Positions 6,403 to 39,262 of a stretch of 64,000 nt of DNA are shown in pieces; position 1 is the stretch's first letter; each line of letters begins with the position of its first letter. The translations under genes and the position numbers were made by a program. Below the pieces are notes generated by a model. The model ran no database searches. It saw nothing but the letters and a program-made list of their open reading frames with translations, and was not told the origin of the DNA. Origin of the DNA: Escherichia coli (GTDB taxonomy: Bacteria; Pseudomonadota; Gammaproteobacteria; Enterobacterales; Enterobacteriaceae); NCBI RefSeq assembly GCF_024502345.1, contig NZ_JALDNN010000001.1, one strand, 5' to 3'.

Positions 6403-6418
6403 TGTGATTTGTATCACA
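6403..6418. promoter_or_regulatory. CRP binding site upstream of azuC
   Basis: TGTGA-tttgta-TCACA, a perfect TGTGA-N6-TCACA. Confidence 0.7.
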
Positions 6419-6500: not shown

Positions 6501-6587
6501 ATGAAACTGCGCAAAATCCTGAAAAGTATGTTCAATAACTATTGCAAGACGTTCAAAGACGTACCGCCAGGCAATATGTTCCGATAA
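6501..6587 (+). CDS. azuC: Small protein AzuC (28 aa), within the AzuCR dual-function RNA locus
   Basis: atgaaactgcgcaaaatcctg... encodes MKLRKILKSMFNNYCKTFKDVPPGNMFR; below the 60-aa track cutoff; terminator follows immediately. Confidence 0.85.
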   Translation: MKLRKILKSMFNNYCKTFKDVPPGNMFR

Positions 6588-14278: not shown

Positions 14279-14707
14279 TTAATCTCCCGTAAGTGGAACT
14301 AACAGCACATCGACCTCACTTGAGGCAATAACTCTTTTCGCCGAGCAGGATGCTCGCGAAAAGAAACTGTGATTGTGATTACCGCAAATCACCAAATCGA
14401 AATGATGCTTGTGACATACTTCCAGAATATGTTCGCTTAACTCACCGTAGGCAATAAACGTCTTGTCAACGGGATACCCCGCATCCTGAATTAACTTATC
14501 AAGAAAGCTTTGCGTTTCTTCCTGCATCACGCTGCGTAAATCTTCAAGCATCGGCGCAGCTAATTGATTGTACATTTCCGGGTCGGAAGCGAGAGTAATT
14601 AAACTGATGTGTCCCTTTACTGGCCTGGCGATAGATACCGCTTTTGCCAGCAGTTGCTGACTTTCCGGTGTAACCGCAACAGCGACAAGAATATTGCTAT
14701 AGCTCAT
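14279..14707 (-). CDS. uspC: Universal stress protein C
   Basis: 142 aa matching K-12 UspC (YecG). Confidence 0.92.
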   Translation of the reverse strand: MSYSNILVAVAVTPESQQLLAKAVSIARPVKGHISLITLASDPEMYNQLAAPMLEDLRSVMQEETQSFLDKLIQDAGYPVDKTFIAYGELSEHILEVCHKHHFDLVICGNHNHSFFSRASCSAKRVIASSEVDVLLVPLTGD

Positions 14708-15209
14708 AACCTGTTCCTTATTCTGTGAACTTCAGGTGACATTAAAGCTTTACTCCTAATGGAGAAACGACGCAATCCCAACTCGGTCAAACAGGTAAAT
14801 ATTAGTCTGATTATTAGTAAAGACAATTAATCAATCACTCCCGGTGATCATATAATTTCAAATGTAATTATAAGAAAATAGTGTACTGATTCTCCGCATT
14901 AAACAAGTGGTTAATATATGTAAAACATTTCATCAACATTAAGTTGATTGTTGCCTTTCTTTGTATTTAATTAGTTTGTTGTGCGGTAAGTGTCTGTTTA
15001 AAAATAGCTTATCTGGTATTGCATGAAAGTGATTATTTATAGCAGATGATTATTTACGGTGAGTTATTTTGACTGTGCGCAACATCCCATTTCGATTATT
15101 CCTGTTTCATTTTTGCTTGCTAGCGTAGCGAAAAACTTTTTAACAGATTGAAATACACCCAAAACAAAAGTATGACTTATACATTTATGTTAAGTAACTG
15201 AGTGTTTTG

Positions 15210-15225
15210 TGTGATCTGCATCACA
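15210..15225. promoter_or_regulatory. CRP site in the flhDC regulatory region
   Basis: TGTGA-tctgca-TCACA, a perfect consensus about 270 nt upstream of the flhD ATG, consistent with the known CRP activation site. Confidence 0.8.
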
Positions 15226-15486
15226 CATTATTGAAAATCGCAGCCCCCCTCCGTTGTATGTGCGTGTAGTGACGAGTACAGTTGCGTCGATTTAGGAAAA
15301 ATCTTAGATAAGTGTAAAGGCCCATTTCTATTTGTAAGGACATATTAAACCAAAAAGGTGGTTCTGCTTATTGCAGCTTATCGCAACTATTCTAATGCTA
15401 ATTATTTTTTACCGGGGCTTCCCGGCGACATTACGGGGTGCGGTGAAACCGCATAAAAATAAAGTTGGTTATTCTGGGTGGGAATA

Positions 15487-15837
15487 ATGCATACCTCCGA
15501 GTTGCTGAAACACATTTATGACATCAACTTGTCATATTTACTACTTGCACAGCGTTTGATTGTTCAGGACAAAGCGTCCGCTATGTTTCGTCTCGGCATA
15601 AATGAAGAAATGGCGACAACGTTAGCGGCACTGACTCTTCCGCAAATGGTTAAGCTGGCAGAAACCAATCAACTGGTTTGTCACTTCCGTTTTGACAGCC
15701 ACCAGACGATTACTCAGTTGACGCAAGATTCCCGCGTTGACGATCTCCAGCAAATTCATACCGGCATCATGCTCTCAACACGCTTGCTGAATGATGTTAA
15801 TCAGCCTGAAGAAGCGCTGCGCAAGAAAAGGGCCTGA
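15487..15837 (+). CDS. flhD: Flagellar master regulator FlhD
   Basis: Start [12 protein letters not shown] gives 116 aa; the track ORF begins 9 nt upstream at GTG. Confidence 0.95.
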
Positions 15838-15839
15838 TC

Positions 15840-16418
15840 ATGAGTGAAAAAAGCATTGTTCAGGAAGCGCGGGATATTCAGCTGGCAATGGAATTGATCA
15901 CCCTGGGCGCTCGTTTGCAGATGCTGGAAAGCGAAACACAGTTAAGTCGCGGACGCCTGATAAAACTTTATAAAGAACTGCGCGGAAGCCCACCGCCGAA
16001 AGGCATGCTGCCATTCTCAACCGACTGGTTTATGACCTGGGAACAAAACGTTCATGCTTCGATGTTCTGTAATGCATGGCAGTTTTTACTGAAAACCGGT
16101 TTGTGTAATGGCGTCGATGCGGTGATCAAAGCCTACCGTTTATACCTTGAACAGTGCCCACAAGCAGAAGAAGGACCACTGCTGGCATTAACCCGTGCCT
16201 GGACATTGGTGCGGTTTGTTGAAAGTGGATTACTGCAACTTTCCAGCTGCAACTGCTGCGGCGGCAATTTTATTACCCACGCTCACCAGCCTGTTGGCAG
16301 CTTTGCCTGCAGCTTATGTCAACCGCCATCCCGGGCAGTAAAAAGACGTAAACTTTCCCAGAATCCTGCCGATATTATCCCACAACTGCTGGATGAACAG
16401 AGAGTACAGGCTGTTTAA
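15840..16418 (+). CDS. flhC: Flagellar master regulator FlhC
   Basis: 192 aa; starts 2 nt after the flhD stop. Confidence 0.96.
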
Positions 16419-16444
16419 CTGATACGGTGAGGCGCAACATTCCA

Positions 16445-16476
16445 GCAGCGGTAACGACGTACCGCTGCTTTTTTTT
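16445..16476 (+). terminator. Rho-independent terminator after flhC
   Basis: gcagcggta-acgac-taccgctgc hairpin followed by a T8 run. Confidence 0.8.
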
Positions 16477-16544
16477 GCCCCAATCGCGCGTTAACGCCTG
16501 ACGACTGAACATCCTGTCATGGTCAACAGTGGAAGGATGATGTC

Positions 16545-17428
16545 GTGCTTATCTTATTAGGTTACCTGGTTGTTCTCGGTACAGTTTTCGGCGGTTATTT
16601 GATGACCGGTGGAAGCCTTGGAGCACTCTATCAACCCGCTGAACTGGTGATTATTGCCGGTGCAGGGATTGGGTCGTTTATCGTCGGCAATAATGGCAAA
16701 GCGATTAAAGGCACGCTGAAGGCGCTGCCGTTGCTGTTTCGTCGCTCCAAATACACCAAAGCAATGTATATGGATCTGCTGGCTCTGCTTTATCGGTTGA
16801 TGGCGAAATCGCGGCAGATGGGGATGTTTTCGCTGGAACGTGATATTGAAAATCCCCGTGAGAGCGAGATCTTCGCCAGCTACCCACGCATCCTCGCGGA
16901 TAGCGTCATGCTTGATTTTATCGTCGATTATCTGCGTCTGATTATCAGCGGTCATATGAACACCTTCGAAATCGAAGCCCTGATGGATGAAGAGATTGAG
17001 ACGCACGAAAGCGAGGCAGAAGTCCCGGCGAACAGTCTGGCGCTGGTCGGGGACTCACTTCCGGCGTTTGGTATTGTCGCGGCTGTAATGGGGGTCGTTC
17101 ACGCGTTAGGTTCAGCCGATCGTCCTGCCGCCGAGCTGGGTGCGCTTATCGCACATGCGATGGTGGGGACTTTCCTCGGCATTTTATTGGCTTACGGATT
17201 TATTTCCCCATTAGCGAGTGTTTTACGTCAGAAAAGCGCCGAAACCAGCAAAATGATGCAGTGCGTCAAAGTCACTCTGCTTTCTAATCTGAACGGTTAC
17301 GCACCGCCTATCGCCGTTGAGTTTGGTCGCAAAACGCTCTATTCCAGCGAACGTCCGTCGTTTATTGAACTGGAAGAGCATGTGCGTGCGGTGAAAAATC
17401 CGCAACAACAGACGACAACCGAGGAAGC

Positions 17429-34409: not shown

Positions 34410-35165
<756 letters not shown>

Positions 35166-35551
35166 TTTTTACCGTTGCATCATGTCGCCCAATATGATGC
35201 TTGCTCGTACCAGGCCCCTGCAATTTCAACAGGGGCCTTTTTTTATCCCTGAGCAGTATAAAAAACGAACGATTACCGTGATCTGTTGAGCGGGTGACAG
35301 TGAACATAGCGTTGTGCTAAAAATATTTTATATATTCACATTAATTATGGGATTTAAATTACTAAAACTAATAAATATATATTCTAAATAGCAACTGGTT
35401 ATTCCTTAGCAATTAATGATTACATTGTAATAAATCATATTCTTTATCGATTATTTCAGGCAGTGTTGTGCCGAATTATGCAAGCGGTTAATTCGTTGTA
35501 TATTTAATTATACAATGATTTCGGTGTTCTGGAATTTAATTAGAGGAATCT

Positions 35552-39157: not shown

Positions 39158-39262
39158 GCCTGATGCGCTATGCTTATCAGGCCTACATAGTCCCTGCAAT
39201 ATATTGAATTAGCAAGGTTTTGTAGGCCGGATAAGGCGTTCACGCCGCATCCGGCAGTAATA
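39158..39262. repeat. REP/BIME cluster
   Basis: gcctgatgcgctatgcttatcaggcctac and tgtaggccggataaggcgttcacgccgcatccggca units. Confidence 0.8.

Follow-up and report, generated by a model that had tools for sequence, protein, structure and literature searches.

A native, uninterrupted control region of the flagellar master operon flhDC in a wild, non-K-12 Escherichia coli strain

Results

The flhDC locus has intact coding sequences flanking a long, low-G+C spacer

We analyzed a contiguous stretch of Escherichia coli DNA of 64,000 nucleotides ('the window'), in which the gene order is araFGH, otsB, otsA, uspC, a spacer, flhD, flhC, motAB, cheAW, tar, tap, cheRBYZ, and flhBAE. The E. coli flhDC locus runs here in the orientation opposite to that in the MG1655 reference (NC_000913.3); the genes, the orientation of the genes to each other, and the regulatory sequence are as in MG1655, and the spacers of the two are 99.2% identical outside the insertion sequence (IS) present in MG1655. 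The spacer lies between the divergent genes uspC and flhD and is followed by flhC and motAB-cheAW, the location expected for the native flhDC class-1 promoter; the annotations of collinear genomes show the same arrangement. A reading of the DNA made from the sequence alone (the sequence-only reading) had described a region of ~780 nt between uspC and flhD at 14708-15486; these limits are exact, and the region comprises 779 bp and ends one base before the flhD ATG. The features of the region are listed in Table 1.

FlhD and FlhC are 100% identical to the MG1655 proteins, and their coding sequences are intact. An in-frame GTG is present upstream of the flhD ATG, at 15478. UspC, the gene for which is also annotated in the collinear GmM062 genome, differs from MG1655 UspC at a single amino acid (Q62 in the window vs. 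H). All 13 downstream flagellar and chemotaxis genes (motAB, cheAW, tar, tap, cheRBYZ, and flhBAE) are present as full-length ORFs. The flhDC locus looks competent; motility would hinge on growth conditions and on those parts of the regulon that lie beyond the window. The spacer most similar to that of the window is the one in PK5, where the CDS annotated as flhC (locus L002, 3780-4415; 636 bp) begins where flhD is expected and motA is 296 bp closer than in the window. This arrangement suggests a deletion fusing flhD and flhC in PK5, a strain that is probably non-motile.

The G+C fraction of the spacer (14708-15486) is 0.353, as compared to 0.501 for the whole window. The low G+C content fits the role described for the spacer, which is to offer binding sites to H-NS and numerous further repressors (PMC5493358).

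Table 1. Features of the uspC-flhD region, in window coordinates; signed positions refer to the inferred flhDC start site unless stated otherwise
Feature	Position	Strand	Description
uspC	14279-14707	minus	ORF, 142 aa, divergent from flhD; same position as annotated CT02 uspC
uspC-flhD intergenic region	14708-15486		779 bp, 35% G+C, without insertion sequence
Upstream AT-rich stretch	14814-15193		IS1/IS5 insertion sites of K-12 and other strains, all unoccupied here
IS5 target TTAG	14814-14817		Published site about -476 (PMC5100188)
IS5 target TTAG	14971-14974		Published site -315 (PMC5100188); equals 516 bp before ATG (PMC11237407)
IS5 target CTAG	15120-15123		Published site -166 (PMC5100188)
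NCTC9008 IS1 target	15144-15152		-145 to -137; junctions with 9-bp duplication
MG1655 IS1H target CATTTATG	15182-15189		-107 to -100; BLAST junctions and 8-bp duplication
IS5 target TTAA	15190-15193		Published hotspot -99 to -96 (PMC5100188)
Rare SNP	15198	plus	C vs. T elsewhere; -91, between IS hotspot and CRP site
cAMP-CRP site TGTGATCTGCATCACA	15210-15225	plus	Predicted; perfect core TGTGA-N6-TCACA; centre -71.5 from inferred start
Weak sigma-70 promoter, predicted	15254-15282	plus	-35 TTGTAT 15254-15259, 17-bp spacer, -10 TACAGT 15277-15282
flhDC transcription start, inferred	15289	plus	198 nt before flhD ATG
flhDC 5' leader	15289-15486	plus	198 nt, from predicted start
AsflhD antisense RNA region	15289-15508	minus	5' end 15508 = +22 of flhD; mapped from MG1655 b4839
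RcsAB-box-like TAGGAAAAATCTTA	15293-15306	plus	+5 to +18; sequence match
Rare SNP	15432	plus	T vs. C elsewhere; +144 of leader, 55 nt before ATG, inside AsflhD
flhD	15487-15837	plus	116 aa counted from ATG at 15487; identical to K-12 FlhD
flhC	15840-16418	plus	192 aa; identical to K-12 FlhC

The control region carries a perfect CRP core upstream of a weak predicted promoter

The sequence-only reading had placed a consensus CRP site at 15210-15225, and TGTGATCTGCATCACA is found exactly there, with a core that matches at 10 of 10 positions. The pattern TGTGAN6TCACA occurs 2 times in the 64-kb window, vs. 0.07 times expected from shuffled sequences. The only match besides TGTGATCTGCATCACA is a second perfect CRP core, TGTGATTTGTATCACA, located at 6403-6418, about 85 bp upstream of the small gene azuC (6501-6587).

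The right half-site of the CRP core in the window is TCACA (A at 15225), whereas that in MG1655 is TCACG (G). The exact 60-mer 15199-15258 is present in 2,854 of 5,359 genomes, O157:H7 EDL933 among them, and K-12 derivatives such as DH1 and MC4100 have one mismatch in this 60-mer. We conclude from these genome counts that the perfect CRP core is the majority E. coli allele and that K-12, with TCACG, is the minority deviant.

Three concordant mappings place the flhDC transcription start at 15289. First, the IS5 target TTAA, for which the published position is -99 to -96 (PMC5100188), sits at 15190-15193, which puts +1 at 15289. Second, the AsflhD annotation of MG1655 (1978176-1978395) maps through alignment to 15508-15289 of the window, such that its 3' end (1978395) falls on 15289. 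Third, an flhD fragment of 220 nt has been described as complementary to an antisense RNA starting at +22 of the ORF (PMC9600491). Measured from this predicted start, the centre of the CRP core is at -71.5, in agreement with the expected spacing of about 71.5-72 bp upstream. Secondary sources back the centring value of -71.5. The CAP site of flhDC has been given as 'at -72' (PMC9600491).

The promoter hexamers, TTGTAT and TACAGT, were assigned by their spacing to the start site, and 7 of 12 consensus positions match. A consensus scan of 14600-15600 for promoters and terminators (9-of-12) returned nothing; the absence of a promoter match in the scan is explained by the match of TTGTAT and TACAGT to only 7 of 12 consensus positions. 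Weak hexamers and an empty scan are in keeping with a weak, activator-dependent promoter. Downstream of the predicted start, at +5 to +18, lies the RcsAB-box-like sequence TAGGAAAAATCTTA, which corresponds to the Rcs box reportedly assigned by Francez-Charlot et al. 2003. The position of TAGGAAAAATCTTA agrees with a description of Rcs boxes as sitting 'just downstream of the transcription start' (PMC11879457).

Two rare substitutions in the spacer have no predicted effect

The flhDC 5' leader has been described as a target of CsrA and of the sRNAs McaS, ArcZ, OmrA, OmrB, and OxyS (PMC3634460, PMC10578931, PMC9600491). An Rfam search at gathering and permissive thresholds identified no RNA family in 14600-16600. 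Elsewhere in the window, MicL sRNA (34937-35244, plus strand, 373.7 bits), C0465 (20868-20945, minus strand, 111.6 bits), and ES036/CssrF (39179-39221, minus strand, 45.5 bits) scored above the Rfam gathering score. The CT02 leader has a 1-bp deletion in a T-run (ATTATTTTTTACC; position 15404 of CT02 locus L008, corresponding to window position 15405), and the CT02 spacer is 778 bp in length.

The window differs from the compared wild genomes at 15198 (C) and 15432 (T), and it differs from most of them at 15320 (G). The exact 60-mer 15165-15224, which carries 15198C, is found at full length in 3 listed genomes among the 5,145 that gave a match; the band of at least 99% identity contains 19 records. 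The exact 66-mer 15400-15465, which carries 15432T, has no full-length match among 5,374 genomes, 5,347 of which match this otherwise highly conserved stretch at 95-99% identity. The rarity of the two alleles is one argument for an alternative reading, according to which the structure of the region is intact and its regulation is atypical, through 15198C (at -91) and 15432T (at +144). This reading also draws on published work in which motility changes through point mutations upstream of flhDC (PMC11237407, PMC5100188).

A further argument for atypical regulation comes from predicted pairing of the leader with sRNAs, for which we used a sliding 25-nt duplex scan with K-12 sRNA sequences, a procedure that ignores intramolecular structure and is indicative only. 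The strongest predicted pairing, at -35.2 kcal/mol, is between ArcZ nt 91-113 and leader positions 15420-15429 and 15434-15442, and 15432 lies between these two helices; the duplex makes use of the ArcZ terminator hairpin. However, 15432 is unpaired in the predicted duplex, in a 4-nt internal loop, and the energy of the duplex is the same with either allele. With the other sRNAs, the sliding scan gives allele differences of 1-2 kcal/mol that involve non-seed regions and are not robust. Full-length RNAduplex predictions for ArcZ, OmrA, OmrB, OxyS, and McaS against the leader were discarded because the duplexes, at -40 to -64 kcal/mol, were too long to be realistic.

Predicted folding of the RNA from +1 to +228 also argues against atypical regulation, since it shifts only slightly between alleles: folding energies are -55.3 kcal/mol for the window, -54.9 kcal/mol with 15432C, and -54.2 kcal/mol with 15432C and 15320A, and the mean unpaired probabilities of the ribosome-binding region are 0.19, 0.17, and 0.16, respectively. 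Neither rare SNP is in the CRP core, the -35 or -10 element, or the Shine-Dalgarno region, and single rare SNPs are to be expected in any wild strain. We conclude that 15198C and 15432T are the sole unusual features of the region, that neither is predicted to have an effect, and that atypical regulation through these variants is improbable. The specific proposal that 15432T, alone or with 15198C, could change how FlhDC synthesis is controlled by sRNAs or antisense RNA is decidedly improbable; if true, such a change would represent a natural point-mutation route to altered motility, replacing IS insertion.

The spacer contains neither an insertion sequence nor the scar of one

IS5 insertions have been reported upstream of the flhD start site at -99 to -96, -166, -315, and -476 (PMC5100188), and an IS insertion 516 bp upstream of the flhD ATG has been published (PMC11237407). 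We placed these published positions on the window by reading the sequence (Table 1), and a separate check confirmed TTAA at 15190-15193. BLAST comparison of the window with the MG1655 region yields two collinear blocks that overlap by 8 bp in the window, at 15182-15189 (CATTTATG), and that are parted in MG1655 by the 768-bp IS1H. This pattern of overlap and gap indicates that MG1655 carries IS1H together with an 8-bp target duplication, CATTTATG, at the equivalent of 15182-15189, whereas the window has the empty site. Apart from IS1H and its duplication, MG1655 is collinear with the window. The statement of the sequence-only reading that K-12 stocks carry IS elements at this location agrees with the MG1655 annotation, which has IS1H between flhD and uspC, and with the published IS5 sites upstream. 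Among natural isolates, IS1 is found in the spacer of, for example, the collection isolate NCTC9008, which has the same locus and flanks about 99.5% identical to the window; NCTC9008 carries IS1 and a 9-bp duplication at the equivalent of 15144-15152, and the window is unoccupied there.

Searches within the spacer gave concordant results. No ORF of more than 40 aa is present in 14708-15486, the longest being two ORFs of 40 aa. A repeat search of the spacer detected only inverted repeats of 10-13 nt, whose arms are separated by 400-680 nt and which have no direct repeats on either side. BLAST with MG1655 IS1H and IS5A detected no similarity in the whole 64-kb window at E<=1e-3 and, against the spacer, nothing but chance 8-11-mers. 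The ORF list, the repeat search, the BLAST results, and the equal length of the spacer in other genomes uphold the earlier claim that the region has no transposase ORF and no terminal inverted repeats. The interval in which IS-activated alleles carry their element, about -96 to -476 relative to the start site, contains no IS here. In GmM062, an IS1X4 that is absent from the window is located between ftnA and yecR (locus L006, 7626-8323, corresponding to window position about 5960).

The same data bear on an alternative reading in which a former IS was excised or decayed and left a scar with regulatory consequences, such as a target duplication, an IS end, or a small deletion. Loss of an IS does occur: some stocks are mixtures of cells with and without the element (PMC11237407). 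However, the spacer is 779 bp, with no indel relative to PK5, GmM062, 160-11H1, 300709, and MG1655 minus IS1H and one copy of the duplication, so that relative to five independent genomes it differs by substitutions only (3-4 in each of PK5, GmM062, 160-11H1, and 300709). Furthermore, every known target sequence is present once: no duplicated target (4 bp for IS5, 8-9 bp for IS1) is found, and CATTTATG, TTAA, and the other targets are single at the relevant positions. The alignments of 14708-15486 showed neither an IS remnant nor a target-site duplication, no IS1 or IS5 fragment was detected, and none of the inverted repeats is meaningful. Excision with complete precision would leave no trace and would amount to the native state. 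We conclude that a regulatory scar of a former IS is most unlikely and that the spacer is uninterrupted.

The uninterrupted form is the norm among E. coli genomes

We used two queries to bound the frequency of interrupted spacers among complete E. coli genomes. Because the search merges pieces separated by less than about 725-890 bp and gives summary numbers, the counts of interruption are to be read as bounds. When the query was the whole spacer, a single place accounted for at least 80% of it in 5,271 of 5,421 genomes (150 of 5,421 falling short), and two places were found in 118 genomes. With the 451-bp hotspot segment (14800-15250) as query, for which any insertion of more than 725 bp splits the match, at least 80% is found in one place in 5,338 genomes, and two places are found in only 69 of 5,419 genomes. 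These counts suggest that interrupted spacers occur in roughly 1-3% of complete genomes, many K-12 laboratory derivatives included, and that the uninterrupted form is the species norm, in about 97-99% of sequenced E. coli genomes.

The regions of typical wild strains (PK5, 160-11H1, GmM062, 300709, and EDL933) have, like the window, a 779-bp spacer, no IS, and the perfect CRP core, and they differ from the window at 3-4 spacer positions.

The window derives from a wild lineage and not from K-12

IS-free K-12 lines (BW25113, MG1655 CGSC 7740, and NZ_CP010440.1) have an uninterrupted spacer in which all IS targets are kept (PMC5493358, PMC11237407), and such lines have been described as poorly motile before an IS inserts. 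The window might accordingly be a K-12 stock of the MG1655 CGSC 7740 or BW25113 type that never gained, or that lost, an IS, and hence a poorly motile laboratory lineage; the gene order is the same as in K-12, and some K-12 records, e.g. NZ_CP010440.1 ('K-12 MG1655'), give a full-length spacer match in one piece.

This possibility is refuted by SNP density and is extremely unlikely. Across the locus, the window falls short of near-identity with MG1655: the two differ by 13 SNPs over 5.2 kb, and 6 of these lie within the 779-bp spacer. The IS-free K-12 lines have the K-12 alleles at the six spacer SNP positions; the window is a different lineage. A 16-kb comparison with 5,426 complete genomes gave as best match not K-12 but the human wild isolate GmM062 (99.8%), and the best spacer match is 99.6%, with three mismatches. 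No tRNA genes were found in the window, whereas K-12 has leuZ-cysT-glyW near yecA. The left end of the window, at 1-2404, is a non-K-12 island with a nuclease and restriction-endonuclease pair that is at least 80% covered in only 213 of the 5,426 genomes.

This two-gene candidate defence island adjoins yecA and comprises ORFs 78-1118 and 1223-2404, both on the plus strand. The product of ORF 78-1118 is a PD-(D/E)XK nuclease (Pfam PDDEXK_4, 8.7e-11; PADLOC candidate family PDC-S26, 2.6e-46), and that of ORF 1223-2404 is an Mrr-type restriction endonuclease (Pfam Mrr_cat, 7.4e-30) that also resembles the ZorD C-terminus and PDC-S02. At the spot of the island, GmM062 has the anti-phage gene hhe and an IS3, and on this account the yecA-adjacent spot looks like a variable defence hotspot. 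The island is 100% identical in CT02; this identity extends over 1-2836 of the window, after which CT02 is about 1% divergent (292 mismatches in 31 kb). The onset of divergence at 2837 indicates, from sequence comparison, a recombination boundary at the island edge, and with the divergence of about 1% from there onward the window is a mosaic wild lineage. CT02 itself was considered as the source of the window and rejected on account of this divergence.

The sequence-only reading had held that the region looks like the uninterrupted ancestral form. This description is supported, with the qualification that the window is non-K-12, so that absence of an IS is the species norm and not a notable ancestral state of K-12.

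Discussion

Our results indicate that the spacer between uspC and flhD is, almost certainly, the class-1 control region of flhDC, the flagellar master operon, in its native and uninterrupted form, and that the strain is a wild one outside K-12. This conclusion rests on what we observed, namely the anatomy of the sequence, the lack of an IS, the collinear alignment with other genomes, allele frequencies, and the intact flhD and flhC genes, and we found nothing that contradicts it. Protein binding, the start site, and the level of expression in this strain are matters that we infer from the sequence. The uninterrupted region is already known: the locus has been studied heavily, and this is its usual and well-described wild-type state.

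According to the mechanism that we propose for this native, uninterrupted region, transcription would begin at about 15289 from the weak sigma-70 promoter TTGTAT-17-TACAGT and would depend on cAMP-CRP bound at 15210-15225, the centre of which, at -71.5, corresponds to a class I activator position. The roughly 480 bp of AT-rich upstream DNA and the early transcribed region would bind repressors, for which the proposed candidates are H-NS, LrhA, OmpR, Fur, IHF, MatA, YjjQ, and RcsAB (with its box at +5 to +18). After transcription, the leader would be controlled by CsrA, McaS, ArcZ, OmrA, OmrB, and OxyS and by the antisense RNA AsflhD. Insertion of IS1 or IS5 between -96 and -476 in K-12 lines relieves upstream repression and raises motility; with no such insertion here, native control of flhDC expression would be expected to operate in full.

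An flhDC upstream region free of IS elements is the default in E. coli and is informative only within K-12 laboratory lineages. For annotation, the lesson is that the CRP site of K-12 (TCACG) is the minority form and that the perfect palindrome is the common allele. The flhDC region of this strain is a standard one, and motility should therefore follow normal catabolite, envelope-stress, and sRNA control and not IS derepression.
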